Shown here piece by piece: positions 724 through 29,069 of a stretch of 29,385 nucleotides of DNA (position 1 is the first letter of the stretch; every line of letters starts with the position of its first letter). The position numbers and the translations under genes were made by a program. The notes beneath the pieces are model-generated. The model was given only the letters and a program-made list of their open reading frames with translations. It was not told the origin of the DNA and ran no database searches. This stretch comes from an uncultured Thermoflexus sp. (GTDB taxonomy: Bacteria; Chloroflexota; Dehalococcoidia; Lucifugimonadales; Lucifugimonadaceae): NCBI GenBank assembly GCA_964456315.1, contig CAYWBD010000307.1, positions 1 through 29,385 of the forward strand. Direction: 5' to 3'.

Positions 724-2325
724 ATGACCCAGCGGAAGCTGAACCTTACGAAGAAACTGGCGGCCACAGCCGTGGTCGCAGCGCGCACTGCGCCCGGCGC
801 GCCCGTCCACCGGCCCGCCCGCGCTGTCGCCCGCAGGCTCACCGCAGTACGCGGGGCGGGGATCGCGGCAAACGGGAACGGGCTGCACGGCACAACGCCT
901 TTCCCCAAGTCCCGCAGGGCCCCCAGCGAGAAGACCGGGGGCCCCGGTCCGACCAGCTCCCCTGACACCCTCTCGAAAAAGATCTACGTGATCGGCGCAG
1001 GCTACGTCGGCCTTGTCACAGGCGCGTGCTTCGCGGAGCTCGGCCACAGGGTCACGTGCGTCGACATCAACAAGGACCGCGTCGCGGCGCTGAACCGCGC
1101 GGAGATCCCGATCTTCGAGCCAGAGCTCGAGCCCCTGGTGCGCAAGCACGTCGACTCCGGCCGCCTGCGGTTCACCACGTCGCTGGAGGGACTCGACGGT
1201 GGCACAGACTTCGTCTTCATGTGCGTGGGCACCCCGGCCGGCTCCGACGAAAAGGTGGACCTGCGGTACCTCCGCGCCGCGTACACGGAAGTGGGACGCC
1301 AACTTAGGGGGGCACGCACGGTCATCGTCAATAAGAGCAGTGTGCCGCCGGGCACGACCGAGGCCATGGCCTCTATCCTGACTGACGCGCTCAAGGGCCG
1401 CGCCCATGCCCGCGTCGTGGCGAACCCCGAGTTCCTCCGTGAGGGCCACGCGGTCAAAGACTTCATGAAGCCCAACCGGGTGGTCGTCGGCTCGTCTGAC
1501 CGCGAAGCGGCCGAGGCGGTGGCTGACCTTTACATGACGTTCAACTGCCCGGTGCTCTTCACCACCTCAAAGACTGCCGAGATGATCAAGTTCGCAAGCA
1601 ACGCCTTCCTCGCGACCAAGCTGACGTTCGTCAATGAGATCGCAGCGTACTGCGAGCTGGACGGCATCGACGTCACCGACGTTGCCCGGGGCATCGGCCT
1701 GGACCCGCGCATCGGCCGGGACTACCTCAAGGCCGGGCTAGGGTACGGGGGCAGCTGCTTGCCGAAGGACACTGCCATCCTTCGCAGCGAGTTCAGGGCC
1801 CGCGGCGTCGAACCAAAACTCCTGGGGGCGGTCATGGACACCAACACCGCCGTCCCGGCGCGCGTCGTCGACCGCCTTGAAGCCTCGCTGGGCAGCCTGC
1901 GGGGCGTCCAGGTCGGGGTGCTCGGCCTGGCATTCAAGTCCAACACGGACGACACGCGCCACTCACCGGCCATTACGGTCATACGTGAGCTCCTGGCGCG
2001 CGGCGCGAATGTGCGCTACTTCGACCCCAAGGCCCGTCACGGCGCGGACACCTTCCAGCGGGCGGTGGGCGTCGCGACAAGCGTCGAGGACGCCGCCAAG
2101 GGCGCCGACGTGCTGCTCATAGCCACAGACTGGCCTGAGTTCAAGACCATTGACCTGCCACGCCTGAAAGCGGTGATGCGCGGGGATGTGCTGGTCGACG
2201 GACGGAACCTGCTCTTGCAGGCGGCCTGCGTCGAGGCCGGGTTCAAGTACATCGGGGTAGGCCGAGGGCAGCAGGACGCGGCTGCGGCGCCTTCCCGCCG
2301 GCGCGCCGCCGCGGTGAGGGCCTGA
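724..2325 (+). CDS. ugd: UDP-glucose/GDP-mannose 6-dehydrogenase family protein with an Ala/Arg/Pro-rich N-terminal extension
   Basis: Rossmann motif IYVIGAGYVG, then ANPEFLREG, KFASNAFLATK, catalytic GYGGSCLPKD and GLAFKSNTDDTR. Start placed at ATG 724 (GGAG at 711-714) rather than the track's 397; start is uncertain. Confidence 0.9.
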   Translation: MTQRKLNLTKKLAATAVVAARTAPGAPVHRPARAVARRLTAVRGAGIAANGNGLHGTTPFPKSRRAPSEKTGGPGPTSSPDTLSKKIYVIGAGYVGLVTGACFAELGHRVTCVDINKDRVAALNRAEIPIFEPELEPLVRKHVDSGRLRFTTSLEGLDGGTDFVFMCVGTPAGSDEKVDLRYLRAAYTEVGRQLRGARTVIVNKSSVPPGTTEAMASILTDALKGRAHARVVANPEFLREGHAVKDFMKPNRVVVGSSDREAAEAVADLYMTFNCPVLFTTSKTAEMIKFASNAFLATKLTFVNEIAAYCELDGIDVTDVARGIGLDPRIGRDYLKAGLGYGGSCLPKDTAILRSEFRARGVEPKLLGAVMDTNTAVPARVVDRLEASLGSLRGVQVGVLGLAFKSNTDDTRHSPAITVIRELLARGANVRYFDPKARHGADTFQRAVGVATSVEDAAKGADVLLIATDWPEFKTIDLPRLKAVMRGDVLVDGRNLLLQAACVEAGFKYIGVGRGQQDAAAAPSRRRAAAVRA

Positions 2326-2327
2326 AC

Positions 2328-3362
2328 GTGGTAGCAGTCGCAGTCGTCGGCCTCGGGTATTGGGGCCCGAACCTTGTCCGCAACTTCCGCAACGTCCCCG
2401 ACGCTCAGATGGCCGTGTGTTGTGACATGGACGCGGCCCGGCTCGACGGTATCAAGACGACTTACCCGGACATGCGTACCGTGACGCGCTTTGAAGACGT
2501 GCTCGCGGACCACACAATAGGCGCGGTCGCAATCGCCACCCCGGCGCGCTCGCACTACAAGATGGTGAAAGAGGCGCTCGTCCACGGGAAGCACGTACTG
2601 GTCGAAAAGCCGCTCGCCATGAGCTCGGCGGAGTGCGAAGAGCTGACCGCTCTGGCCTCCGCCAGGCGGCTGACGCTGATGGTGGGGCACACGTTCTTGT
2701 ACTCCCCGGCTGTCGCGGAACTCAAACGGGTCTTGGACAGCGGCGAGTTGGGCGAACTGCGCTACCTCTACTCGCAGCGCCTGAACCTGGGGCGCGTACA
2801 GACTGACATCAACGCGCTGTGGAGCCTGGCCCCCCACGATGTCTCGATCGTCCTGCACCTCCTTGGCCGGATGCCTGAGGAGGTATCGGCCACCGGCGGG
2901 TGCTACCTGACCCCCGGCGTGCACGATGTCGCCTTCATGAACATGCGCTTCGACAACCAGGTCATGGCCAACGTACACGTCAGCTGGCTCGACTCACATC
3001 GGACGCGGTCCTTCACGCTGGTCGGGTCACACAAGATGGCGGAGTATGACAGCAGCGCGGGCAAGGACGTCGTCCGCGTGCACGATAAGCGAGCGGTGCC
3101 ACCGGCGAGCGGCCGCGGCCCGTTTGAGCTGGTGTCGGGCGCTACCGCTCTCCCCCAGATGCCACCCGGCGAGCCGCTAACCAACGAGTGCCGCCACTTT
3201 ATCGAGTGCATCACCACCGGCCGTACGCCAGTCAGCGATGGCGTTAACGGGCTCCACGTTGTCCGCGTGCTGGAAGCCGCCCAGAAATCTCTCGAAAGCC
3301 GCGGCGAGCCCGTGCGGGTGCAGTCTGGCCGCCTTTCAGCTGCGTCACCAGCCGCCGGCTAG
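2328..3362 (+). CDS. Gfo/Idh/MocA family NAD-dependent oxidoreductase (WbpB-like sugar 3-dehydrogenase)
   Basis: VAVVGLGYWG, IATPARSH and KHVLVEKP motifs. GTG start lies 2 nt after the ugd stop. Confidence 0.9.
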   Translation: MVAVAVVGLGYWGPNLVRNFRNVPDAQMAVCCDMDAARLDGIKTTYPDMRTVTRFEDVLADHTIGAVAIATPARSHYKMVKEALVHGKHVLVEKPLAMSSAECEELTALASARRLTLMVGHTFLYSPAVAELKRVLDSGELGELRYLYSQRLNLGRVQTDINALWSLAPHDVSIVLHLLGRMPEEVSATGGCYLTPGVHDVAFMNMRFDNQVMANVHVSWLDSHRTRSFTLVGSHKMAEYDSSAGKDVVRVHDKRAVPPASGRGPFELVSGATALPQMPPGEPLTNECRHFIECITTGRTPVSDGVNGLHVVRVLEAAQKSLESRGEPVRVQSGRLSAASPAAG

Positions 3363-3462
3363 GCCGCTGCGGGGGCCTCACACAGACGTTTCAGACGCGA
3401 CCAGTCCCTAGCCGTAGCGCCCGGCCTGCCGCCGTCCAGCGCAAACGCACCGGAGGTGCCCC

Positions 3463-4581
3463 ATGAAAGTCCCATTCGTTGACCTAAAAGCCCAGTACGC
3501 CACCATCCACGCTGAGATCGATGCCGCCATCAAGCGTGTCATCGACCGGACGAGCTTCATCGGCGGCGAGGAGGTCGCGGCGTTCGACCAGGAGTTCGCG
3601 GCGTACTGCGAAGCGCGCGCCGCCGTGGGAGTCTCGAACGGGACCGAGGCCCTGCGCCTGGCTCTTATGGCCTGCGACATCGGCCCCGGCGATGAGGTGA
3701 TCACCACCCCGTTCACGTTCATCGCCACGTCCGAGGCCATCGTGCAGGTGGGCGCCACGCCGGTCTTCGTGGACATCGACCCCAAGACCCGCAACATCGA
3801 CGCCAGCCTGATCGCGGGGGCCATTACACCGCGCACCCGCGCTGTCATCCCCGTGCACCTGTACGGCTACCCGGCCGAGATGGACGCCATCTGCCGCATC
3901 GCCCGCCAGCACGGCCTCAAGGTGATCGAGGACGCCGCCCAGGCCCACGGCGCCCGTTTCAAGGGCACGCGCGTCGGTAACTTCGGCGATGCCACTTGCT
4001 TCAGCTTCTACCCTGGCAAGAACCTCGGCGCATACGGGGACGCCGGCGCTGTGGTGACCAACGACGAAGCGCTGGCGACGCGCATCCGCCTGTTGCGTGA
4101 CCACGGGCGGCTGGAAAAGTACGAGCACCAGATAATCGGCTACAACTCCCGTCTGGACGGCATCCAGGCCGCCATACTGCGCGTGAAGCTGCAGCGCCTG
4201 GACCAGTGGAACGCGGCCCGCCGCCAGCACAACCACGTCTACCGGGAGCTGTTGCAGGACCTGCCCGTTGTGCTGCCGTTCGAGCAGGCCAACGTTGAGC
4301 CGGTGTACCACCTGTTCGTGGTCAGCTCGCCAGCCCGCGACAAGATCAGGGCGGCACTGGAGAAGGACGGGGTCTCGACGGGTGTGCACTACCCGCTGCC
4401 CCTGCACCTCCAGCCTGCCCTAAAACACCTCGGCTACGGCCAGGGCGACTTCCCGGAGAGCGAACGCGCAGCGAAGGAAGTGCTGTCCCTGCCGATGTTC
4501 CCGGAGATGACCGAGGCGCAGTCGCACGCCGTCGCCTACGCGCTCAAGAAGGCGACAGCGGCGGCGACCGCCGCCCGGTAG
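3463..4581 (+). CDS. DegT/DnrJ/EryC1/StrS PLP-dependent sugar aminotransferase (WbpE-like)
   Basis: [33 protein letters not shown] and [16 protein letters not shown] (PLP lysine). GGAGG Shine-Dalgarno upstream. Confidence 0.93.
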
Positions 4582-4599
4582 CTGGCGCCGCTCGACGAG

Positions 4600-4800
4600 C
4601 CGGCTCGGCTCGGGCCTGTCGAAGGGCGAACGGCCGACGCGCCGTGCCTTACCGATGACCCGGTCGCCTCGGCTGGCCTGTCCTGAGCCGAGCCGAAGGC
4701 CTGAACCCGGCCGAGGGACCGAGTGGCCAGGTCGGCATCCCCGCGACAACGGGAATCCAGGCCTCACCATGACCCTCTCCCGGCTGGAGATAGGCGAGGT
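4600..4800. repeat. Intergenic mosaic of short palindromic REP-like elements
   Basis: Contains variants of three repeat families seen elsewhere in the window: gggcctgtcgaaggg / gtcctgagccgagccgaagg, atccccgcgacaacgggaatcc (dRS3-like) and ccctctccc. Confidence 0.6.
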
Positions 4801-5617: not shown

Positions 5618-6478
5618 CTAGACCCAGATGGCGACGGGCTGGCGGGTCCGGGCGGCGAATGCCAGGGCCAGGGCGTCGGCCTTGTCGGGGCTGGGCTGGC
5701 CGCGTGCGCGGAGCGAGTCCTTTGACTCGATCAGTATCTGGCCTGAGCCTGTGAAGCCGTAGCGGACTGTCGATAGCTGTGAGATGAGCTCGGGGTCGTT
5801 GGGGACTTTGATGCGGTGGTTCTCAAAGCGCCAGCGCAGGGCATCGTAGAGCTCGGCGCGCAAGTTGGCGTACTGCTCGCGGTCTGAGGGCCTCGCTGCA
5901 GCGTTGACGCCGGTAATAGCCGGGCCTGCAGCCCTCGGGCCAGGCAGGACGACACGGTGAGGCGCCGCGTCACTTTTCTGGAGTTCGCGGAGCCGGTCTA
6001 CGACGCCTGCGCCGATGCCGGTCTCGTCGATGAACACGGCCGCGGGCTGGTAGGTGCGGATGGCGTTGACGACGCGCCCTGCCGTGGCCATCGTGTCGTC
6101 GCCCCAGTAGGAGGCGATGAAGATGACGCGCTCGTCTTCTCGAACGCATATCGCGGTGCGGTCTGCCCCGAATCGCGCGACGTCGACACCCATGGCCACC
6201 AGGGGTCTCACACGGGGCTGTTCCCGGACGGGCTGTGGCGGGTAGCGAAATGAGGCGTGGCGCCCCAGCCCTGGCTCGGGATACATATGGGAGCGCGATT
6301 CGCTGCCGACGGGCGCGCGGAAGAAGCCCGAAAGGAGGGCGACCCAATCGTCGGCCGAGATCAGTCTCGCCCCCTCACCCTCAGCCTGGGAGGGTGAGGG
6401 GGCGGTGCCGCGGGTGTCACTTGCCGTGGCTGTCACGGGCAGGAATGTGTCGAACGGGTTGCCTGGCTGCGCTGTCAC
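5618..6478 (-). CDS. Phage terminase large subunit, C-terminal RNase H-like nuclease part, with a repeat-derived N-terminal segment
   Basis: GVDVARFGADRT, FIDETGIGAGVVDRL, YANLRAELY and GQPSPDKADALALAF. GTG start overlaps the upstream TGA by 4 nt (GTGA). Confidence 0.85.
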   Translation of the reverse strand: MTAQPGNPFDTFLPVTATASDTRGTAPSPSQAEGEGARLISADDWVALLSGFFRAPVGSESRSHMYPEPGLGRHASFRYPPQPVREQPRVRPLVAMGVDVARFGADRTAICVREDERVIFIASYWGDDTMATAGRVVNAIRTYQPAAVFIDETGIGAGVVDRLRELQKSDAAPHRVVLPGPRAAGPAITGVNAAARPSDREQYANLRAELYDALRWRFENHRIKVPNDPELISQLSTVRYGFTGSGQILIESKDSLRARGQPSPDKADALALAFAARTRQPVAIWV

Positions 6479-7758
6479 ACCGCCGCTCCTTCGAGAGCTT
6501 CATGTCCTTCGAGAGCCTCAGGACGCCGTCCTTCGAGAGCCTCAGGACGCGGTTCTGTTGCTTGTGACACGCGTTCCACCGCGCCGGGGGGGCTGTCGGA
6601 GCCGTCTTGCTGCCGGGCGCGGCCTGTGGCAGAGAGGGCCGGGTCGATTGCCTCCTCGATGCGGGTGAGAGGGATGAGCGTGTCTTCGCTCTGCGAGGGG
6701 AACTCGCCGAGCACTCGGACCTGGTAGCGGGGGTGGTCCTTGCCCCAGTTGGCCGCGGCCTCGGCGACCCATTGCTGGGTAATCAGGCCGGGGACCGCGG
6801 AGTCTGCGTCCTGAGGCTCGCCTGCAACCTCATCATCGCTCGTCCCGAGCGTAGTCGAGGGACCCCGTTCAGCGGCCACCGAAAGCGGAGGGGTACGGGG
6901 CCCTTCGACAGGCTCAGGGCGAGCGGTTGCGAGGCTCAGGGCTTGGGGTCCCTCGCCCCCGTCCACCTCTGCTGTGAGCGGGGATTGCTGACCCCTCACC
7001 CCAACCCTCTCCCGCAAGGGGAGAGGGAGTGAAGGAAGGCGCAGGTTCGGCGTATCAAACGCGGAGATGTGTATGGTGCGCCACAGGCCGCGGCGGGAAT
7101 GGAAGGCGTCGTAGAACGTCCCTTCGCGGCGTGTGGGGTTGCCGATCAGCAGCAGCCTCGCCCTGCCCGTGGTCATCGAGCCTTCGATGGCCTCGTAGAT
7201 CTCCTCGGGGACGCCGGATGCCTCGTCCACGACGAACAGGATGTTGGCGTGGTGGAAGCCCTGGAAGCGCTCCGGGGAGTCCGACGTGAAGCCGCGGGCA
7301 AATCGGGACGGCGAGATGTCGAGCGCGGTCTGGTGGCAGTCGCCGCCGATGAAGGCGGCGTTCCTGGTGTGGATGCGCCTGATCTCGCGCCAGAGGAGCT
7401 CTTTGACCTGGCGTTCTGTGGGCGCGGTGGTGACCGCGATGGCCTCCGTGAAAGACGAGAGCCACCAGACGACGGCGCAAGCGGCGGTATAGGTCTTGCC
7501 TGAGCCGTTACAGGAGCGCACGGCGACGCGGCGGTGGTCCCTTACCGCCTTCAGGATGTCCGCCTGCTTCCTCCACAGCGGACACCCCAGCTCCCCCTCC
7601 ACAAACCCGACCGGGTTCTCGAACCACGCTGCCAGCGCCACCCCCGCCGACGGCCCCTCTCCGTCCCTGCGCCGGGCCGCCGGCGCCGTCCCTGTCCACG
7701 GCCCCTCCCCCTCCCGGCGCCTGTCCGCCCGCTCTCGTGTCGCAACACTCACAACCAC
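6475..7758 (-). CDS. Phage terminase large subunit, N-terminal ATPase part, with an ~81-aa in-frame repeat-derived insert
   Basis: Adenine-binding region LWRKQ, Walker A RSCNGSGKT, TAPTERQ, Walker B FVVDEA, coupling motif LLIGNP and YQVRVLGEF. Confidence 0.85.
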   Translation of the reverse strand: MVVSVATRERADRRREGEGPWTGTAPAARRRDGEGPSAGVALAAWFENPVGFVEGELGCPLWRKQADILKAVRDHRRVAVRSCNGSGKTYTAACAVVWWLSSFTEAIAVTTAPTERQVKELLWREIRRIHTRNAAFIGGDCHQTALDISPSRFARGFTSDSPERFQGFHHANILFVVDEASGVPEEIYEAIEGSMTTGRARLLLIGNPTRREGTFYDAFHSRRGLWRTIHISAFDTPNLRLPSLPLPLRERVGVRGQQSPLTAEVDGGEGPQALSLATARPEPVEGPRTPPLSVAAERGPSTTLGTSDDEVAGEPQDADSAVPGLITQQWVAEAAANWGKDHPRYQVRVLGEFPSQSEDTLIPLTRIEEAIDPALSATGRARQQDGSDSPPGAVERVSQATEPRPEALEGRRPEALEGHEALEGAAV

Positions 7759-7827
7759 ACCCCCAACGCCTTGAGCAAGAGGTCATCCTAGTGTCCTGCC
7801 ACCGAAGTGAAGCGCCAATCCGGTCAT

Positions 7828-7936
7828 CCCCTCTCCCCTTGAGGGAGAGGGTCAGGGTGAGGGAGAAGCCCTATCTCCCCCCTCTCCCAACAGGAGAGGG
7901 TCCGAGCCTGCCCCGGCGAAATCCGGGGCCTGAGGG
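7828..7936. repeat. Family A palindromic repeats (CCCTCTCCC-loop-GGGAGAGGG with GGGTGAGGG) plus a CCTGCCCCGGCGAAA(T/G)CCGGGG element
   Basis: Hairpins at 7828-7863 and 7881-7900. The second element recurs at ~11240-11265. Confidence 0.8.
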
Positions 7937-7946
7937 CGAAGCAACC

Positions 7947-8141
7947 GATGCCGTCATTCCTGCGAAAGCGGGAATCCAGCGCCACCCTGTTGCAGACCGC
8001 CCCGTCATTCCTGCGAAAGCAGGAATCCAGCGCCACCCTGTTGCAGACCAATGCCGTCATTCCTGCGAAAGCAGGAATCCAGCGCCACCCTGTTGCAGAC
8101 CGATGCCGTCATTCCTGCGAAAGCGGGAATCCAGCGCCACC
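7947..8141 (+). repeat. Tandem array of 3.8 x ~52-bp units containing a CGTC-tagged, dRS3-like palindrome
   Basis: Units start at 7947, 7999, 8050 and 8102 (partial). Core CGTCATTCCTGCGAAAGC(A/G)GGAATCCAG has the ATTCCY-N8-RGGAAT layout. Inter-core sequence is the same in each unit. Confidence 0.9.
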
Positions 8142-8317
8142 TGCTCCAATCCCCAACTTCCGCCACAACCCCCTCCCCCGTCAACCGCCTCCTGTCACAC
8201 ATCGCCGCCAGCATCACCCAAGCAGTCAGCTGTCCGACACCATTGTTCTTCCGTCCGCGTCGGTACACAAGACGCAGCCGTTGTAGCTACTGTTTCCCAG
8301 CGGTTCCGCGGAAACCT

Positions 8318-8368
8318 TGTATGCCGAAGTGCCACGGATGCTTCGCATCCGTGGCACTTCGGCATACA
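8318..8368. other. Perfect 24-bp inverted repeat with a 3-nt loop at the left edge of the low-GC island
   Basis: tgtatgccgaagtgccacggatgc-TTC-gcatccgtggcacttcggcataca. No clear U-tract follows on either strand. Confidence 0.85.
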
Positions 8369-8411
8369 CTAGCCGTACGTTCCGCCCTGAACGACGGTTG
8401 GAGGATCAGCC

Positions 8412-8903
8412 ATGCGCGTTGAGGTCAATCGGCACACTCCCGACCCGCTCCACCAGAAAATGTTGGCCAGCAGCGTCGAACTGACCCTGCGTCGTTATCA
8501 ACGTACCCGTGATATCGCGCGCTTGGATAACGCGGCATTGCTTCAATGGGTCAAACTGCTTGACGCCGCCTTGGACGCCAACAACGAAACACAACAAGCA
8601 ACGTTCTCTGAATCGCCCCAAGAGAGCAGAGCCAAATCTTTGTCGGTCCTTGATGCTGTGCTTGGTGCGTTAGATTTCACTATTCTGCCCAACGATAATG
8701 CTAGAGATCAACTGCGTATACTTGAACAAACGACGCTTCGATTGTCGGCGGGCGAACAAGTTTCTGATGAGTTATTAAGCTCATTGGTACTCTTCGCCCG
8801 GCGATACGGACGACACTATGACTATATCTTAGTACCCGAGGGAAAGGCTGACGCGCGGATTACTCACACATGGCCGAAAATGCTTCGTCTCGCCTTCTCG
8901 TAG
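8412..8903 (+). CDS. Hypothetical predicted alpha-helical protein (163 aa), first gene of the low-GC island
   Basis: GGAGG SD at 8400-8404 and ATG at 8412. Codon usage is AT-richer than the host's. The 3' end overlaps the next gene by 34 nt. Confidence 0.7.
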   Translation: MRVEVNRHTPDPLHQKMLASSVELTLRRYQRTRDIARLDNAALLQWVKLLDAALDANNETQQATFSESPQESRAKSLSVLDAVLGALDFTILPNDNARDQLRILEQTTLRLSAGEQVSDELLSSLVLFARRYGRHYDYILVPEGKADARITHTWPKMLRLAFS

Positions 8904-10918
8904 GCGAACTCATCTGGCGTTGTAGTGAGTTGACGAAACAACTCAACTCGCTGCAACCTGAGCACTTTGCGAGCGACGTTGGACGCCAACTGCGAGGCGC
9001 GTTGCTTGAGGCTGTAGACCATGTGTCGCTTCAAGTACGTTCTATCGAGCTTGACGCGGCAGCTGGGGCGTCCATTGAAGAGTTGTTCGCAGCGTCTAGT
9101 AAGTTTCATGCCTTCTTGATGTCGATTGATAACCAATGGCTTCCACTCCTAGGTGGTGCAGTCAGTTCGGCGACGCCGTTTGAAGTCACGGTGCCCATCG
9201 AAAGAATTGCAAAGAAGCTTCTAGGCGAATCCCAGTTCATTTTTAACTCGGTCCGTCAACTAAACTACTCGCTTCTACCGGTCGGACAAACATTGCGAGA
9301 TGAATTCGCGCTCATGGGTCTTCAAGAAATTCTTGTACGATCGGGCTTGACGCCGATACTCCACCAGGTCGATGTAGCAGCGGCTCCGCCCGGGGGCGTA
9401 TTATGTCACGCTATTTTAGCGCACGAGATCGGCCACGCGTTATATGTCGCGCATCGTGCTGAGGACCGATTGGTCTCAACTGCTGTGCTTCCTGAACAGT
9501 ATGTGATTGATATCGCTGCCCGAGACTTCCCGACAGTGGAACGGCTGACAGACGGGTCGTCCCGTCCAATCCAGCTCGTTCTGAGCCAAATGAGAGAAGC
9601 ACAACTGCTGTGGACGCGGGCCCGCCTCAAGAAGATCGTCGTACAGTGGTTGGAAGAATTGTATTGCGATGCAGTGGGCGTTGTGTTGCTGGGTCCTGCA
9701 TACGTGTGCGCAATGGGGGAAATGGCAGTTGTTGGTGGCGATATTGATCGAGCGACGGAATCGCATCCACCAGATCGGCTTAGACTAGATTTCGCCCTGC
9801 GTGTTCTGATCCAGTCGGACGACCGTGGGATGAACTACAAGTCCATGAGAGACAAGAGAGCGCTGCCAGCGCTTGCGTCTATGTTGGCGCCGTGGAAGAG
9901 CTTGTTGGACACAGCACCCAGCGTGCAGGCTGAGTTGGAGGCCGACGCAGCCCGCGCCACCATTGACGGGTCACGGTCCGCCGTCATCCAAGAGGTCACG
10001 CGCACCATTCCTGCCGAGCACCAATTCCGACGTACACGATTTCAGCACGACGTACCTCAACTCGTTGAAAAGTTGCTAAACGGAATCCCGCCAACTGAGA
10101 GGATCGTGAAACGACCGTGGAGGATTGATGCGGCTGATTTGCCGTCCATCTTGAACGCCGGGTGGGTAGTCTATGTTAAGTCACATTTGAGCAACGACTC
10201 GCCATTCGACGCTAGCGCGATGAACAGATTCCAACGATTGATGACCAAATCACTAGAGGACTCCGAACTGCGGAGGGGTTTCAGTGTAGCCGCCGCCGGC
10301 CCCCCGTTAACAGGTCAGCCCCTGGGCAATCGCTTGTTTGGCGACGTGCCTGAGCATGAACGATTAATTGTCACACCGTTGTTGGAGCCGGAATCACAGA
10401 TCAAAGAAGGCAGCGAGGCTATTGACCTTCGACTTGGATCCTGGTTCTTAATTCAAGAACGCTCAGAGGTTAGCAAGTTTGACGCCGCGGATCCCAACTT
10501 CGAGGCGGCCAAGGTGACAGTAGATCGCACATTTCGGATCCCATATGGTTCGTCAACGCTGCTTCATCCTGGTCAGTTCATTTTGGGATCGACGCTTGAA
10601 TTCTTAGCGCTTCCAGGTGATATGAGGGGCTATGTAATCGGGCGATCTGGTTGGGGCCGGCTCGGTCTCGTGATCGCGACGGCGACGGGAGTGAATCCCT
10701 ACTACAAAGGGTGCCTCACACTTGAATTGGCCAATGTCGGCGAGGTGCCGATCACTTTGTGGCCGGGTGTTGCTGTCGCACAATTGTTCTTTCATCATGT
10801 GGAACTCCAGGCGCCCGGGCCGACTTCTCCGTATAGCGGGTCAACGCGGCCGGAGTCAAGCCACCTCGATTTGAGGCAAGTCGTGGGGAGACTCAAGGGA
10901 ATGTCTTCACGACGTTGA
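8870..10918 (+). CDS. Fusion protein: N-terminal HExxH zincin-like (metallopeptidase-like) domain plus C-terminal dCTP deaminase (trimeric dUTPase fold)
   Basis: HEIGH (9422-9436), WLEELYCDAVG..LLGPAY and SHPPDRLR in the N-terminal part. C-terminal ~180 aa has AIDLRLG, LHPGQFILGSTLE, GRSGWGRLGL, GCLTLELANVG and PGVAVAQLFF, typical of Dcd. Confidence 0.85.
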   Translation: MAENASSRLLVGELIWRCSELTKQLNSLQPEHFASDVGRQLRGALLEAVDHVSLQVRSIELDAAAGASIEELFAASSKFHAFLMSIDNQWLPLLGGAVSSATPFEVTVPIERIAKKLLGESQFIFNSVRQLNYSLLPVGQTLRDEFALMGLQEILVRSGLTPILHQVDVAAAPPGGVLCHAILAHEIGHALYVAHRAEDRLVSTAVLPEQYVIDIAARDFPTVERLTDGSSRPIQLVLSQMREAQLLWTRARLKKIVVQWLEELYCDAVGVVLLGPAYVCAMGEMAVVGGDIDRATESHPPDRLRLDFALRVLIQSDDRGMNYKSMRDKRALPALASMLAPWKSLLDTAPSVQAELEADAARATIDGSRSAVIQEVTRTIPAEHQFRRTRFQHDVPQLVEKLLNGIPPTERIVKRPWRIDAADLPSILNAGWVVYVKSHLSNDSPFDASAMNRFQRLMTKSLEDSELRRGFSVAAAGPPLTGQPLGNRLFGDVPEHERLIVTPLLEPESQIKEGSEAIDLRLGSWFLIQERSEVSKFDAADPNFEAAKVTVDRTFRIPYGSSTLLHPGQFILGSTLEFLALPGDMRGYVIGRSGWGRLGLVIATATGVNPYYKGCLTLELANVGEVPITLWPGVAVAQLFFHHVELQAPGPTSPYSGSTRPESSHLDLRQVVGRLKGMSSRR

Positions 10919-10953
10919 ACGACCCAGCAACGGGGCCATGGAATTATGAACGA

Positions 10954-11272
10954 CCCTCCAGTGGGAGAGGGCCAGGGTGAGGGTGAAGTCCGGACCCGTC
11001 CAGCATTTTCCGCAGTAGCGCCCTTGGCCGTGCCACCCTTTGTTGACAATACCAGCACACACGTTCTATTTTACAGTCAATGCATCTGTGGTCCTACCGT
11101 CCCGTTGCCTTCCGGGGGCAGCGAGGCGGCAAGCCCGCAGACACGCTCCGGCAGCAAGTTCGCGCGACCGCGCCGCCTGAGCAGGACACACTCGTACTTG
11201 CACTAACTCATCCCCTCTCCCCTTGAGGGAGAGGGCAAAGAGCCTGCCCCGGCGAAAGCCGGGGGTGAGGGG
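10954..11272. repeat. Family A palindromic repeats at the right edge of the island (10954-10983 and 11212-11272)
   Basis: gggagagggccagggtgaggg; cccctctccccttgagggagaggg (same 24-mer as at 7828 and 14685) followed by gagcctgccccggcgaaagccgggggtgagggg. Confidence 0.8.
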
Positions 11273-11747
11273 TGAACCAAAGCCACGCATCGGACCATCG
11301 GGACGCGGCAAACGACCATCCCCGCACCGGCCCCTCCGGGGCCCGGGCGGCAAAACCCTCCGTCCCTGTCCAGGGACAAACAAGGACCAGGCGCCGTCGG
11401 CCCTCCGGGCAGACGGTGAGTGAAGCACAACACCAACGGCCCCGGGCCGGCAGGGTCTCTCTGCCGGCCAACCTGACCGCGTCCCGATGTCTCCGGCGCT
11501 ACCCCATCGCGCACGCCTCAACGCGCCCACGTCGGCGGTCTTTGACGCCTGCGGCCTCACAGTGCGCGTTGCCCATTGGCTCTACCCCTGTCGGTGTGTT
11601 CCACGATGTCTGGGCTGCGTACTTGTCACTAGACTCGACGAAGCTGCCACGCATACCGGAGGGGGTAGCTACCGGCATGTAGGGGGCTGCTCAGTTCGTT
11701 TGCGCTGCGCTCGGCGCGCCAGGCTCACGGGGGTTTGCCAGTCACAC

Positions 11748-12233
11748 ATGAGACAAGAGTTCGTCAACCCGTTTTTGGCGCCCGTACAGAAGGTCTGGAA
11801 AGTCGAGCTGGGCCTGGACCTGAAGATCAAGAGCGCGCAGGCTGTTGACATCAGCCACACCGTCGGAGACATCACAGCCATAATCGGCGTGAGCGGGTCG
11901 ATTGTGGGGAACGTGCTCTACGGCTTCGGTGAGGGCACCGCCCTTGCTATCGTCACCAAGATGATCGGGCCCGGCGCGAACCCGCGGGACGGCATGGGAC
12001 TGTCCGCCCTCGGCGAAATCGCCAACATGGTGTCCGGCAACGCCGCCACCCAGCTTGCAGCAACGGGGTTCCCTTGCGACATCAGCCCGCCGGTGATCAT
12101 CGAGCCTCGCGGCGCGCGGATAACGACGGCCGTGCCCCAGCAGATCCTGGTCACGTTCACGAGCGACCTCGGCGACCTTCAAGTGCGGATCGGTCTGGCA
12201 GAGAACACCAAGGTGCTCGCCAACGCGGCTTGA
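11748..12233 (+). CDS. cheX: CheX-family chemotaxis phosphatase (orphan)
   Basis: MRQEFVNPF start, ITAIIGVSG, SALGEIANMVSGNA (E-x2-N phosphatase motif) and DISPPVII. Start re-called at ATG 11748. Confidence 0.85.
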   Translation: MRQEFVNPFLAPVQKVWKVELGLDLKIKSAQAVDISHTVGDITAIIGVSGSIVGNVLYGFGEGTALAIVTKMIGPGANPRDGMGLSALGEIANMVSGNAATQLAATGFPCDISPPVIIEPRGARITTAVPQQILVTFTSDLGDLQVRIGLAENTKVLANAA

Positions 12234-19149: not shown

Positions 19150-19226
19150 TGGTGGGCAGTAGAGGGCTCGAACCTCTGACCTCAGCGATGTCAACGCTGC
19201 GCTCTAACCAGCTGAGCTAACCGCCC
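19150..19226 (-). tRNA. tRNA-Val (anticodon GAC), 77 nt, CCA encoded
   Basis: GGGCGGT/ACTGCCC acceptor stem, GCTC/GAGC D stem, CAGCG-TTGACAT-CGCTG anticodon arm, AGAGG-TTCGAGC-CCTCT T arm and ACCA end. A TAGAAT -10-like box lies 9 nt upstream. Confidence 0.97.
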
Positions 19227-19312
19227 ATGGACACCATTCTAGTGTAGCTGGCAGCTTTGCGGAACCCCAGCAACGGCTGCATACGCGCACTGTACCCCTG
19301 ATTCTTAGCGGT

Positions 19313-20496
19313 CTAGCGTAGCCAGACCCAATAATCGACTCTGTTGTCGACTTTGAATCCACCCTTGACCAGTCTCTTAACGTCACCATCACTCGAGTCG
19401 GCAAGGCAAATGGCAGTAGACGTCAGCGGCACTCCGCAGTCGAAGAGCACTCGCTTGCCATCCGGCGACCAGCGTCCAACTCCCAAGCCGCCGTCAGCCA
19501 AGATCCGCATGCCCGCACCACTTATGTTGACGATACAGAATGTGGGCCTCATGGGCGAGCCGCAGTCGACGAGCAATTCCTTGCCATTCGGAGACCAATC
19601 ATATACAAACTTCGATGATAATACACTCGTGTCGCCCGTCGCGGCTTGCACCAAATACGTTGTGGTACCGGCGTCCGTGATCTTTCCAACTACTATCGCG
19701 GATCCATCGGCAGACCAGATGGGATTCGAGTATTGGCCTATACCACTGCCTCAGCAGACCGCTACAGGTAGAGGCAGCCACAGCGTTCGGACGGTTAACA
19801 GACACCACACCTGGTGGGGTGCTGAGTCAGTGGTATAGGCCAATTCGAGTATATCGCAAACTCTCGACTACCCGCGGTGTCGGTTAGGCATCGAAGGCCA
19901 CTGCCGTCGATGTTTACCACACATAAGTCACTGGCCAAGGATGTGACCCCGTCGGGATGAGGCACTCGTCTTCGAAACGCAAGCGTCTTGCCGTCAGGCG
20001 ACCAAACTGGCGCATGGTCAGCATAGGCGGCCCGTAGTACAAGGCGTGCTTCGAAGGTGCCAAGATCAGCAATGTAGAGATCGTACGCAAGGTCTCTGCC
20101 TGGTCGCTTCGCCGCATAGGCCAGCTGAGAGCCATCTGGCGAAAACGCTATCCCGTCGATAAGAGTCCGTTCGCGTGTGACTAGTTTCTCATTCGTGCCA
20201 TCGGCGTTGATGATGTGTATCTGACTATCGAGGAACGGCTCTGTGAGCGCGAGCACGGTTCCGGATGCGTTCGCGGTCAGATCCCACATGTCTCGCTTCT
20301 GACCAATAACGTTACGTTCAACTCCATTGTCGACGATGACAAGTGTCCTGCCGCGTAAATAGGCGAAACTAATATCTCTGGGCAGCCTGTCAGTTGACGA
20401 TTGGCAGGCTACAGGAAACGCCAGGAGACCTGCTGACAGAACCATGCAGCCGACACGGACAACCCAACTCCGGGTAGCGTGGCTGAACCTCAGCAC
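19313..20496 (-). pseudogene. TolB-like/PD40 beta-propeller exported protein interrupted by a MITE (354 aa when restored)
   Basis: Repeated WSPDG/FSPDG motifs in both ORFs and an N-terminal hydrophobic segment ending ...PVAC. Deleting 119 bp (element plus one TSD) gives in-frame ...AIYSNPIWSADGS... joining 19795-20496 to 19313-19654. Lower GC than the host. Confidence 0.85.
19734..19842. mobile_element. 109-bp non-autonomous MITE, 23-bp terminal inverted repeats, 10-bp target-site duplication
   Basis: TIRs tggcctataccactgcctcagca / tgctgagtcagtggtataggcca (1 mismatch). Direct repeat ATTCGAGTAT at 19724-19733 and 19843-19852. An equivalent parse is 111 bp with an 8-bp TSD. Confidence 0.9.
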
Positions 20497-20544
20497 GGCA
20501 GGGCGTGCGTTGACTTCGATCAGGTCAGGCAGCGTGTTCTACCC

Positions 20545-20635: not shown

Positions 20636-22417
20636 CTAAGTAGCGGAGCGCCCTCGTCGTAGCCCCCTGCCCGGGAACACGCCCGTGTGGCGGCCCTGGT
20701 CTATGACCACCTTGCCGTTGACGATGACGTACGGGATGCCCTCCGGGTAGACCTTCGGGTCCGCCTTGCTCGCACGCGTCTTCACTGTGTGTTTGTCGAA
20801 TATCACGACGTCCGCCTTAAAACCGTCTCGCAGCACGCCCCGGTCCGGCAGGCCCAGCCGCTGCGCCGGGAACGAGGTCATCTTGCGCACCGCCTCTGGC
20901 AGCCGCAGGTGCTTCTCAGCCCGCACAAACTCGGCGAGCACTACCGGGAAGCAGCCGTACGTGCGCGGGTTGGGCATGTCGCCGAAGAGGATGGCGTCTG
21001 AGGCGACCATCCCGTACGGGTGCGCCACAAACGCAGGCAGCGTGTGCGCGTTCGTGCCGAGGCCGACTGTCGAGATGCCCAGGCCCTCCTCGGCGAGCAG
21101 GTCGAAGAGCGCGTCGTACGGGTCCTTGCCCAGCGCGTTGGCGACCTCGGCGATCGAGTGGCCCTCGTGCTGCTTGTTGTGCGGCAGCTTGAAGTTTGTG
21201 AGCCAGTTCTCCTCGAAGCGACGACGGGGCCCTTCGACGGGCTCAAGGCGAGTGGCGCTCGGTCCCTGAGGCTCTCGAAGGGCCGACCCCTTCGAGCCAC
21301 CTGCGCCATGCGGCGGTCCCTGAGGCTCCCGAAGGGCCGACCGCTTCGAGCCACCTGCGGCAAGTCTGGCGCTTTGCGGCCCTTCGGGAGCCTCAGGGAC
21401 CGCGGCGCGGTACTCGTACCCAAGCTCGCCCCGCTCCATGTCACGTCGCATCCGGTCACGGTCACGGAGGTCGCGCAGGGCGCGCTTTAGCCGCTCCGGG
21501 CCCCCGTCCATGGCCCACTGCGGCAGCATGATCGTCACCCGTGTGCCCGAGTACGGGTACGTGTAGCAGTCGAACGTGACGTCCAGCCCCTCATCACGGG
21601 AGCGCTCGACCAGGCCTATGTAATCGAGGTGCGAACCCACTCCCTGCTGCCCCTGCCGGTAGTGCGTCAGGTGCACGCCTATGCCGGACTGGCGGCCGAT
21701 CTCGACCGCCTCTTCCCACGGCGCCAGCAGGCCGGTCTTGAGCAGGCTGGCGCGGGTGTGCGTGTGGTAGAACCCGCCGAGGCGCGCCGTCGTCTGGCAC
21801 AGGGCTACCAACTCCGCGGTGTCTGCAAACGAACCGGGCGGGTAGTCAAGGCCCGTCGACAGTCCCCAGGCGCCCTCTTCCATGGCCTCACGCACGACCG
21901 CCTGCATGTCGGCGGTCTCGGCCCGCGTCGCCGGGCGGTTGTCCCACCCCACGCCCCAGATGCGCACCGGCGAGTTGCCCAGGATGTAGGCGACGTTGAC
22001 CGACCCGCGGCCGTCGTACTTGCGCAGCAGCTCCGCGACCGTGAGCCAGTCTGCGGGCATGGGCGGCCAATCGTTCAGGCCGCAGTCGAGCTCGATGAAG
22101 CGGTGCAGCTCTGCCTGCGTCTTGAACGGCGCGACAGAGTTGCCGTCTATGCCAATAAGCTCGGTCGTGACGCCCTGGCGCACTTTGGGCAGGTGCTCCG
22201 GCTCCCGCAGGAGGGTGAGCCCGCCGTGGGAGTGCAGGTCTATGAAGCCCGGACAGACGACATGGCCCGAGGCGTTTATCTCACGGGCGGCCTGGATGCC
22301 GGACGCATCTCCGCGGTGGATGTGGAGCGTGTCCCCCTCGACGAGCACCGTCCCGGAGTAGCCAGGGCTGCCCGTGCCGTCGATTATCTCCCCGCCGGTG
22401 ATTTTCAGGTCTAGCAA
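20636..22417 (-). CDS. N-acyl-D-amino-acid deacylase / D-aminoacylase-like amidohydrolase with a 58-aa in-frame repeat insert
   Basis: LDLKITGGEIIDGTG, PGFIDLHSH, GAWGLSTGLDYPPG, YHTHTR, HPYGMVASD, PRTYGCF, RKMTSFPAQRLGL and ADVVIFD. Start re-called at TTG 22417. Confidence 0.9.
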   Translation of the reverse strand: MLDLKITGGEIIDGTGSPGYSGTVLVEGDTLHIHRGDASGIQAAREINASGHVVCPGFIDLHSHGGLTLLREPEHLPKVRQGVTTELIGIDGNSVAPFKTQAELHRFIELDCGLNDWPPMPADWLTVAELLRKYDGRGSVNVAYILGNSPVRIWGVGWDNRPATRAETADMQAVVREAMEEGAWGLSTGLDYPPGSFADTAELVALCQTTARLGGFYHTHTRASLLKTGLLAPWEEAVEIGRQSGIGVHLTHYRQGQQGVGSHLDYIGLVERSRDEGLDVTFDCYTYPYSGTRVTIMLPQWAMDGGPERLKRALRDLRDRDRMRRDMERGELGYEYRAAVPEAPEGPQSARLAAGGSKRSALREPQGPPHGAGGSKGSALREPQGPSATRLEPVEGPRRRFEENWLTNFKLPHNKQHEGHSIAEVANALGKDPYDALFDLLAEEGLGISTVGLGTNAHTLPAFVAHPYGMVASDAILFGDMPNPRTYGCFPVVLAEFVRAEKHLRLPEAVRKMTSFPAQRLGLPDRGVLRDGFKADVVIFDKHTVKTRASKADPKVYPEGIPYVIVNGKVVIDQGRHTGVFPGRGLRRGRSAT

Positions 22418-22443
22418 AGCGCAAGCCGCGCCGCGCGCAGAAA

Positions 22444-22711
22444 GAGATTCTTCACTGCGGCCTCCGGCCCTCCGTTCAGAGTGACATGCCAGGCGCGACA
22501 TGACGCACACGCCCGACGGAGTCTTTATGAGGCCCGCGGGCGTGCGCGTCAACACACCGCAATGTCATTCTGAGCGGAGGCCCGGAGGGCCGCAGCGAAG
22601 AATCTAGATCAGACAGCCACGCGGCCGTCACGTCATGCCTGACATCGCCACAACCGTGACGCGTCGCTGTTCGACCTAGATCCTTCGGGCCTGCGGCCCT
22701 CAGGATGACAT
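22444..22711. mobile_element. Family D MITE-like element (22562-22711) plus an inverted half-copy (22444-22487)
   Basis: Termini ATGTCATTCTGAG...CTCAGGATGACAT with internal CGAAGAATCT / AGATCCTTCG. Related to the copy at 26597-26726. Confidence 0.75.
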
Positions 22712-27527: not shown

Positions 27528-29069
27528 ATGTTTGAGTCTCTGACGGAAAAGCTGACCGCCACGTTCGGGCGCCTCTCGGGCAAGGGGAAACTATCGGAGC
27601 AGGATGTGGACGAGGCGCTGCGCGAGGTCCGCCTGGCGCTGCTGGAGGCGGACGTTGACTTCAAGGTGGCCCGCGCGCTCGTCGACGCGGTGCGCCAGCG
27701 GGCGGTCAGCGAGAAGGTGTTCGCATCGCTGACGCCGGGCCAGACAGTGGTGAAGCTCGTCAGCGCAGAGCTGGTCAGGGTGCTGAGCGGGGAAGCCCCC
27801 TCTCCCTCACAGGGAGAGAGTCAGGGAGGGAGTGCGTCCGTTCCCTCTCCCCTTGCGGGAGAGGGTCAGGGTGAGGGGTCGGGACGGGTCGGGACGGGGC
27901 CCCTCGACAAGCTCGGGGCGAGCGGAGCAGCCCATGTCCCGGCGAGCGAAGGCACCCCTGTACGCACTGTGGCGGGCCTTCGTCGTGCAGACACTCCGCC
28001 CAGCGTCGTCATGCTCGTCGGCCTCCAGGGCTCCGGCAAGACGACCATGGCCGCCAAGCTCGCTCTCCGCCTCAAGCACGAAGCCCGCAGCGACCGCCGC
28101 GCCCCGCCGCCGGTCATGCTCGCCGCGCTGGACCTTCGCCGGCCCGCCGCCATAGACCAGCTCGTACAGCTCGGCAAGCAGATAGACGTGCCTGTCTACC
28201 ACGAGCCCGCCGCAGGCAACTCCGCGGTCGAGGTCGCAAAGCGCGCCGTCGCAAAGGCCCGCGCTGAAGGCATCTTCTGGCTCATCCTGGACACCGGTGG
28301 CCGCCTGCACATAGACGACGAGCTCATGACCGAGCTTGAGCAGGTCCGCGACGCCACCGGCCCGGTCGAGTCGCTCCTGGTCGTAGACGCCATGACCGGG
28401 CAGGACGCAGTGCGGTCCGGCTCGGAGTTCCACCGGCGCATCGGCCTCACCGGGACCATCATCACCAAGATGGACGGCGACGCCCGCGGTGGCGCGGCCC
28501 TGTCCATGCGCGCCGTGACCGGCCTGCCCGTGAAGTTCATCGGCGTCAGCGAGAAGCCGGACGGCATCGAGGAGTTCTTCCCGGACCGCATCGCCTCTCG
28601 CATCCTGGGCATGGGCGATGTGCAGACGCTTATCGAGAAGGCGCAGGGCCAGTTCGACACCGACCAGGCCCGCAGGATCGAACAGAAGCTCAAGAAGAAC
28701 CAGTTCGACCTCGACGACCTGTTGGAGCAGTTCCGGGCCATCAAGAAGATGGGGCCGCTGGCGGACATCCTGGGCATGGTGCCGGGCATGGGCGGCCTCA
28801 AGGCGGCCAAGGCGCTGCGGGACACCGACGACCGCAAGATCCTCCAGGTCGAGGCGATCATCCTTTCCATGACGCCGCGCGAGCGCCGTGAGCCGAAGCT
28901 GATCAACGGGTCGCGCCGCAAGCGCATCGCCAACGGGTCCGGCACTTCGCCCGCGCAGGTGAACGCGCTCTTGAACCAGTTCACGCAGATGCAAAAGGTG
29001 ATGAAGAAGCTGTCCACGCCCGGCGGCAAACGCGCCCTCATGGGCATGATGCGCGGAATCGGGCGGTAA
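27528..29069 (+). CDS. ffh: Signal recognition particle protein Ffh with an ~58-aa in-frame repeat-derived insert between the N and G domains
   Basis: MFESLTEKL, ALLEADV, GLQGSGKTT, DTGGR, DAMTGQDA, TKMDGDARGGAALS, RIASRILGMGD and Met-rich M domain (SRRKRIANGSG). Confidence 0.97.
   Translation: MFESLTEKLTATFGRLSGKGKLSEQDVDEALREVRLALLEADVDFKVARALVDAVRQRAVSEKVFASLTPGQTVVKLVSAELVRVLSGEAPSPSQGESQGGSASVPSPLAGEGQGEGSGRVGTGPLDKLGASGAAHVPASEGTPVRTVAGLRRADTPPSVVMLVGLQGSGKTTMAAKLALRLKHEARSDRRAPPPVMLAALDLRRPAAIDQLVQLGKQIDVPVYHEPAAGNSAVEVAKRAVAKARAEGIFWLILDTGGRLHIDDELMTELEQVRDATGPVESLLVVDAMTGQDAVRSGSEFHRRIGLTGTIITKMDGDARGGAALSMRAVTGLPVKFIGVSEKPDGIEEFFPDRIASRILGMGDVQTLIEKAQGQFDTDQARRIEQKLKKNQFDLDDLLEQFRAIKKMGPLADILGMVPGMGGLKAAKALRDTDDRKILQVEAIILSMTPRERREPKLINGSRRKRIANGSGTSPAQVNALLNQFTQMQKVMKKLSTPGGKRALMGMMRGIGR

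Follow-up and report, generated by a model that had tools for sequence, protein, structure and literature searches.

A large terminase gene broken at its repeat-enlarged inter-domain linker in an uncultured member of the Chloroflexota: probably a recent relic of a phage-derived gene set

Introduction

The large terminase subunit (TerL) is normally one polypeptide, in which an ATPase domain and a nuclease domain are joined by a short hinge. In P74-26 TerL, the best-studied case, the ATPase domain binds DNA on its own, and the isolated nuclease domain of the same protein shows neither DNA binding nor cleavage (PMC5389665). Here we describe a TerL gene that is divided between two open reading frames (ORFs) at positions 5618–7758 of a 29,385-nt stretch of DNA, referred to as the window, from an uncultured Thermoflexus sp. 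The genome is a 2.9-Mb metagenome-assembled genome (MAG) in 479 contigs that is 84% complete. The linker between the two domains is enlarged by sequence that is partly derived from short repeats of this genome. A comparable process is found in Rickettsia, in which the palindromic elements are short repeats inserted in frame into protein-coding genes. We consider it somewhat better than even (roughly 55%) that the gene belonged to an old phage-derived set and was broken only recently, which would make it a relic rather than a new two-subunit enzyme.

Results

The two ORFs encode the ATPase and nuclease domains of a TerL

Both ORFs lie on the minus strand. ORF A (6475–7758; 427 aa) encodes the TerL ATPase domain with the lid subdomain, together with repeat-derived inserts and a tail. 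ORF B (5618–6478; 286 aa) begins with a 93-aa non-conserved extension, which is followed by the TerL nuclease domain. The junction (6475–6491, minus strand) consists of AAGGAG (6486–6491), a 7-nt spacer and the tetranucleotide GTGA (6475–6478), which is common to both ORFs and provides the GTG start codon of ORF B and the TGA stop codon of ORF A. The gene is single-copy in this genome.

The conserved ATPase core (residues 45–239 of ORF A; 7042–7626, minus strand) shares 58–64% amino acid identity with homologues of the same family and 74–76% with the closest homologues. It contains the Walker A motif CNGSGKT (A83–89; 7492–7512), the Walker B motif ILFVVDEASG (A173–182; 7213–7242) and the GNP coupling motif (A206–208; 7135–7143), all of which occupy invariant columns in an alignment with 12 relatives and 101 intact homologues. 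Conservation extends to the lid subdomain and the first part of the linker (A321–371; 6646–6798, minus strand), which are 55–63% identical to the relatives. The nuclease domain (B94–286; 5621–6199, minus strand) contains three acidic motifs, GVDVARFGADRT (B97–108; 6155–6190), FIDETGIG (B149–156; 6011–6034) and SPDKADAL (B263–270; 5669–5692), whose residues D99, D151 and D265/D268, respectively, are located at invariant columns of the same alignment.

The Pfam matches are weak (AAA_19, 26.2 bits; Terminase_6C, 18.1 bits, under its cut-off of 22.6), and a search of NCBIfam gave no match. In PHROG, ORF A matches phrog_5902 (3.3e-40) and the TerL family phrog_2 (5.5e-27), and ORF B matches phrog_2 (1.8e-10). 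A profile of the intact family members matches solved terminases, including the E217 TerL nuclease (6e-16) and Sf6 gp2 (3e-10). In the AlphaFold2 models predicted from the family alignments, the predicted local distance difference test score (pLDDT) exceeds 90 in both cores (A40–238 and B94–286). The top Foldseek matches of the ORF A core are the TerL ATPase domains of P74-26, D6E, T4 and Sf6 (E from 1.6e-8), and those of the ORF B core are the TerL nuclease domains of E217, Sf6 and G20c (best E, 1.6e-12). By sequence, motifs and fold, the gene is a TerL: it has the motifs of an ASCE (additional strand, catalytic glutamate) P-loop ATPase including the catalytic Glu, a TerL-type ATPase fold and the acidic residues of an RNase H-like nuclease. 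Both halves still look catalytically competent. The departure from TerL is that the domains lie in two frames, with the GTGA overlap and a 446-nt insert between them, and not in one polypeptide with a short hinge.

An earlier sequence-only reading had described a TerL that is split into ATPase and nuclease ORFs with its catalytic motifs intact, and the PHROG, Foldseek and alignment results confirm this description. The stop/start overlap that it placed within ~440 nt of extra linker does lie in such an insert (446 nt at 6200–6645), and the codon usage is host-like as stated, since the GC content at third codon positions (GC3) of the conserved TerL parts is 0.82–0.89 compared with 0.82–0.90 for host genes.

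At E ≤1e-10, 989 homologues were found in a large protein collection, with the source names Chloroflexi, Chloroflexota and Dehalococcoidia. Of 41 related genomes, 13 carry TerL and 11 carry the capsid gene; in a wider sample of 401 genomes from the class, TerL was detected in 30. Every relative that was fetched carries both domains in one frame, in a single ORF of 452–576 aa, and annotated phage terminases, each of which is one gene, match full-length family members at 35–42% identity over >90% of the length. The ancestral state is a single-ORF TerL.

Repeats of the genome are inserted in frame into the gene

Compared with its relatives, the window copy has four additions. A tandem 48-nt duplication (7628–7723, minus strand; repeat family D3) lies in the variable, non-conserved N-terminal part of ORF A. 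Insert I1 (6799–7041, minus strand; 81 codons, 243 nt) follows the sequence AFDTPNL in frame and is a mosaic of three repeat families, which occur elsewhere in the genome in 68, 103 and 7 near-full copies at a median identity of 91–94%. Insert I2, the extra linker (6200–6645, minus strand; 446 nt), comprises A372–427 and B1–93, is located between the lid and the nuclease domain and holds the frame change. Insert I3 (5918–5974, minus strand; 19 codons, 57 nt) is an in-frame addition to a nuclease-domain loop. Within I2, three EALEG units (6486–6551, minus strand; 24 + 24 + 18 = 66 nt; repeat family D2) belong to a repeat with 24 other copies in the genome, and a perfect hairpin with 15-nt arms and a 7-nt loop (6368–6404, unstranded; inverted repeat I8) is located in the ORF B extension; no other full-length copy of the hairpin was found in the genome. 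The linker is thus partly repeat-derived, and the EALEG units and the hairpin named in the sequence-only reading are both present. When the genome was checked, I3 and the N-terminal tandem were not genome-wide repeats. The sequence-only reading of the split gene did not mention I1 or I3. In the alignment, I1 and I3 have no counterpart in any relative, and most relatives lack a counterpart of I2.

The inserts differ from the conserved parts in composition and in predicted structure. GC3 is 0.64 in I1 and 0.57 in the ORF A tail, i.e. without the host codon bias, and the composition of the tail is non-coding-like. In the AlphaFold2 models, pLDDT is below 50 in I1, I2 is predicted to be mostly disordered, and pLDDT is low at ORF B residues 174–179, in I3. 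The two frames are open together for only ~7 codons (~21 nt), just after the tandem EALEG repeat. The linker is also enlarged in frame in intact relatives such as L019, L025 and P0010, and it is therefore the insertion-tolerant site of this protein.

Other explanations for the linker sequence were considered and rejected. For an intron, an intein or a structured RNA, all Rfam matches were sub-threshold and Pfam revealed no further domain. Programmed frameshifting would have to be −1, yet the 7-codon overlap contains no X XXY YYZ heptamer, and the +1 frame stops after ~20 codons. An imperfect inverted repeat, CGCGTGTCACA / TGTGACAGCGC (6563–6573 and 6469–6479), flanks the EALEG block and the GTGA junction with a span of 105 nt, and the bracketed span might be a discrete inserted element.

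Repeats are also found outside the TerL gene. Directly upstream of ORF A, a repeat field (7819–8154, unstranded) is composed of families D1, D4 and D6, which have copies genome-wide, and it occupies the slot where relatives have TerS-like (small terminase subunit) or other small ORFs. The repeat families of I1 and the EALEG units also occur inside ffh (27528–29069) at 27842–27925, where the Pfam matches of Ffh leave a gap of ~75 residues between the N domain (5–82) and the GTPase domain (158–361), and another repeat copy (21226–21284) lies inside an amidohydrolase gene (20636–22555). Given these copies in ffh and in further genes of the window, this genome habitually takes up repeats in frame within its proteins. 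Even the essential ffh seems to tolerate it.

The packaging module is dispersed in this genome and reduced in its sister

A portal gene (PF04860) follows TerL in 8 of 13 loci, and a TerS-like gene is located upstream of TerL in some relatives. In one related genome (G014), the order is TerL, portal, Na+/H+ exchanger (NhaP), prohead protease, major capsid, p141 and p113. Another contig of the genome studied here (C121, ~6586–12060) contains NhaP, protease, capsid, p141 and p113 in the same order as G014; the capsid is 70% identical to that of G014, and the capsid-protease block is intact. The phage head module thus encloses a host-type transporter gene, NhaP, and four genera share the gene order around it.

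Around the TerL gene, no trace of a portal, TerS or capsid gene was detected in the window even at E = 10, and no integrase was found, as the sequence-only reading had stated for the flanks. The neighbours are sugar-nucleotide, tricarboxylic acid cycle and translation genes together with a low-GC island, and the left flank of the window has no synteny with the relatives. The only tRNA gene of the window is 11 kb away from TerL. Neither a TerS homologue nor a cognate portal was found in the 84%-complete genome. Its only portals, on contigs C234 and C346, are 32–40% identical to TerL-linked portals, compared with 45–81% among the TerL-linked portals themselves. The term ‘orphan’ therefore describes the gene within the window, but not genome-wide, where the protease-capsid block on C121 and the portals of another lineage on C234 and C346 are present.

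These contigs and the rest of the window contain several further features. On C234 (~1080–4705), a 435-aa coiled-coil ORF, which might be putatively tape-measure-like, precedes the other-lineage portal and a 157-aa protein, and a collagen-like Gly-Pro repeat protein is encoded at 6476–8041. C346 carries a second copy of the C234 portal and small protein with 66–82% identity. In the window, tRNA-Val borders a second low-GC stretch (19150–20500; GC ~0.55), which encodes a PD40-repeat protein and may be another insertion hotspot.

A second genome of the same genus (G001) lacks both TerL and the capsid gene. On its contig C11 (locus L038; 352–3157), NhaP and the C-terminal half of the cognate, TerL-linked portal (residues ~188–400) are followed by an unrelated 344-aa ORF and proBA. 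This half-portal is 62–68% identical to TerL-linked portals and lies ~8 kb from sucCD; the window TerL lies ~5 kb from sucCD. This truncated relic occupies the position expected for TerL. Because the set is dispersed in the genome studied here and its parts are missing or truncated in G001, the module is disappearing piece by piece in this genus. In a member of the family that has no TerL, portal or capsid (G002, contig C2, 110499–114324), the exchanger homologue adjoins sucDC, which hints that exchanger and sucCD are the host backbone that once received the phage genes.

The nearest relatives are also broken at the linker

In a tree of 127 family members, the window copy groups with P0002, P0003 and P0004 (SH-aLRT 96). 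Two of these three nearest relatives keep both halves intact, and one has no nuclease domain. The latter is the closest homologue (P0002; 76% identity), which was found in two samples (L026 and L027) between fusA and argJ: the ATPase part is followed by repeat junk, and the nuclease domain is gone. In P0004 (L028), a stop codon is followed by a 340-nt repeat spacer and then by the nuclease domain in another frame, with a further stop before it. Among the junctions and linkers of the four clade members, no shared sequence was detected in three-frame local alignments against shuffled controls (none with z >4); an apparent common motif, DDWVALLSG / EEWANLLAG, is accordingly not claimed.

Breaks occur elsewhere in the family as well. 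In L029, which belongs to another clade, an in-frame TAG is directly followed by ATG-GVDVARFG (8874–8879; …ADST* MGVDVARFG), and an intact portal lies downstream; this contig was reported in two samples. P0054 and P0110 have frameshifts within the nuclease domain. We did not use the multi-frame TerL of G270 and G347 as evidence of decay because they may reflect long-read errors, one junction being a run of nine G in a closed genome, and the split copies L030–L032 were set aside because they come from long-read assemblies with frameshifted neighbour genes. The portal matches of G008 and G021 that appeared to have stops inside merely end at natural stop codons and were likewise left out.

The NG86 omega is 0.11–0.15 within the broken clade and 0.08–0.12 for intact pairs, but the synonymous distance (dS) is saturated, so that omega mostly reflects the time before the split and cannot date it. 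dS is at least 1.7 or undefined for all pairs except L028–L026, for which omega is 0.29.

Discussion

The evidence is best explained by a recently broken relic, because the module is dismantled, the sister genome and the nearest homologue have suffered losses, the linker tolerates insertions, and the isolated nuclease domain of P74-26 TerL is inactive. On this account, the gene is the large terminase gene of an old chromosomal set of phage-derived head and packaging genes, which is patchy in Dehalococcoidia-type Chloroflexota and whose usual order is TerS-like, TerL, portal and then protease, capsid and small head proteins, with the gene for a host-type Na+/H+ exchanger mid-set. In this genome, the set has been taken apart, leaving TerL by sucCD and the exchanger, protease and capsid genes on another contig. 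Short palindromic repeats of the genome may first have entered TerL at sites that tolerate in-frame insertion, namely the inter-domain linker and the surface loop that follows AFDTPNL. The frame would next have been broken within the enlarged linker to give an ATPase ORF and a nuclease ORF, with the GTGA overlap arising by chance. The break was probably recent, and the gene presumably no longer packages DNA.

The sequence-only reading had offered a decaying relic and a two-subunit enzyme and had favoured the latter, on the grounds that the break falls at the domain boundary. The evidence favours the relic, given the loss of the gene in G001, the nearest relative without a nuclease domain, the missing TerS and cognate portal, and the inactive isolated nuclease domain. 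The position of the break also has a simpler explanation, since the linker is the single place in the family where insertions accumulate. Nothing was found in support of packaging in trans or of a decoy that interferes with phage packaging. As findings that would refute it, that reading had named relatives that lack the gene or carry randomly degraded copies, and this is partly borne out: the same-genus genome lacks it and the nearest relative lacks the nuclease domain, but the halves in the window show no rate acceleration.

Several observations weigh against a relic. Besides the one frame change, there are no stops, frameshifts or losses of conserved residues in ~440 conserved codons. At the 156 near-invariant columns (at least 93% conserved among the 101 intact proteins), the window copy deviates at 8, all conservatively, and its intact sisters P0006 and P0089 deviate at 9 each; the root-to-tip distance, measured along branches from the main node of the family, is ~0.90 for the window compared with ~1.0–1.2 for intact members. 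None of I1 (243 nt), I3 (57 nt) and the EALEG block (66 nt) shifts the reading frame, and selection would therefore have acted on the ORF until recently. An AAGGAG motif precedes the GTG of ORF B by 7 nt, in a genome that uses Shine-Dalgarno sites, those of other genes in the window being of the GGAGG type; the 93-codon extension of ORF B is open, which has a chance of ~1 in 8 by base composition, and the GC pattern over the three codon positions of its residues 37–93 is coding-like. In all four members of the clade, the break lies at the inter-domain linker, each time in a different form, and one of them (L033; P0003) has an ATGA overlap with GGAGGAG upstream and a portal gene downstream. Finally, the genome is just 84% complete, and the portal and TerS could lie in its unassembled part.

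Many of these observations would also be expected of a functional two-piece terminase, in which the halves are translated apart, ORF B by coupling or re-initiation at GTGA via AAGGAG, associate non-covalently and are kept by selection, possibly within a gene transfer agent (GTA)-like system. Both halves are intact with all motifs and without an excess of changes at conserved sites or an accelerated rate, a Shine-Dalgarno motif is suitably spaced from the ORF B start, and the combination of such a motif with a 4-nt overlap is seen twice, in the window and in L033, the latter with a portal downstream. The breaks of all four members of a well-supported clade at the linker, the portal downstream of the broken copy in the separate clade of L029, omega values in the broken clade like those of intact pairs and the intact capsid-protease block in the same genome point in the same direction. 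We nevertheless regard a functional two-piece enzyme as a possible but doubtful explanation. The omega values mostly predate the split; the four junctions have no detectable common sequence that would show the split to be inherited; in L028 the nuclease domain is preceded by a repeat spacer and a stop, and in L026 it is gone; TerS and a cognate portal were not found in the genome, and the sister genome has no TerL. The nuclease domain of P74-26 TerL is inactive on DNA when isolated (PMC5389665), and the tail of ORF A has a non-coding-like composition. A more specific version, in which the split was inherited from the ancestor of the window copy and its three nearest relatives and the ATPase and coupled nuclease subunits were kept by selection within a Dehalococcoidia particle gene set, seems unlikely to us. 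Were it correct, the Chloroflexota would have a two-subunit terminase that is inherited, as part of a possible GTA-like system, and this would bear on whether terminase domains work as separate subunits and on the existence of such a system in these uncultured bacteria.

An assembly or sequencing error is improbable. The true gene would then be one ~713-aa ORF with a long disordered linker, and a 1–2-nt indel beside the EALEG tandem would have created the break; a single indel within the ~21-nt stretch right after the tandem repeat would indeed join the frames, the MAG is fragmented into 479 contigs, and long-read assemblies of relatives (L030–L032 and G270) show clearly error-like frameshifts, such as that at the nine-G run. 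However, no other conserved gene is frameshifted in the 29-kb window, the junction contains no homopolymer, and linker breaks are also found in three other assemblies that are apparently short-read, as judged from contig names and sources. Least probable among the explanations considered is that one half has been kept for a new role, with the ATPase half acting, for example, as a DNA-binding or decoy protein against phage packaging or working together with the dCTP-deaminase island next to it; no evidence was found for a decoy role or for a link to the island. In two samples, the closest relative has kept its ATPase ORF intact but lacks the nuclease domain, the ATPase domain of P74-26 TerL alone binds DNA (PMC5389665), and the gene adjoins a candidate defence island. 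Against such a role, the nuclease half in the window is preserved as well as the ATPase half, the omega of 0.29 between L026 and L028 fits relaxation and not new constraint, and the island differs in composition and is unlinked to TerL in all relatives.

If the gene is a recently broken relic, the outcome is an ordinary one, a phage gene that decays in a bacterial chromosome. The locus also provides a clear case of genome-wide short repeats that are written in frame into proteins, including the product of an essential gene, and illustrates how an insertion-tolerant site can end in the breakage of a gene. The head and packaging set to which TerL belongs has an order around a host gene that is common to Dehalococcoidia-type genera, and breaks at the linker recur in the nearest relatives.

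Comparison with known systems

The finding is probably a degraded phage gene, which is an already known kind. The gene shares the two folds, their order and the motifs with single-polypeptide TerL such as Sf6 gp2 (PDB code: 4IDH), P74-26 TerL, the E217 nuclease (PDB code: 8DKR) and the TerL of Arthrobacter phage Amigo, but differs from them in having two frames, ~250 extra codons and no adjacent TerS or cognate portal. It thus fails two contextual marks of a working terminase, the single polypeptide and the surrounding packaging module.

Cryptic or defective prophage remnants resemble the locus in their scattered structural genes, their missing or truncated neighbours, here and in the sister genome, and their patchy distribution. 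Unlike in such remnants, the preservation of the remaining genes is unusually good and their codon usage is host-like, and their order around the host-type exchanger is common to several genera; this order and the preservation suggest a long residence under selection. An intact inducible prophage does not fit, as the neighbours in the window are housekeeping genes.

The GTAs of the RcGTA type also have chromosomal head and packaging genes that lie among host genes and are conserved between genera, with no integrase in the loci examined. The present set differs in that no tail, lysis or regulatory genes were identified, in that it is patchy and not lineage-wide, and in that it is known from genes alone; TerS and the cognate portal are missing and TerL is broken. 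In place of a complete head-tail set, the genes of this lineage that were found are limited to the broken TerL, the protease, the capsid and two small head-region genes. As for vertical inheritance, the order around NhaP is kept in four genera, yet the presence of the set is patchy and dS is saturated.

The closest parallel to the inserts is found in the palindromic elements of Rickettsia. In both cases, short palindromic repeats that occur genome-wide lie in frame in genes, including ffh in the present genome, and are translated as additional peptide segments. The present genome differs in its repeat families and its phylum, and here one of the sites at which the repeats accumulate also bears a frame break.

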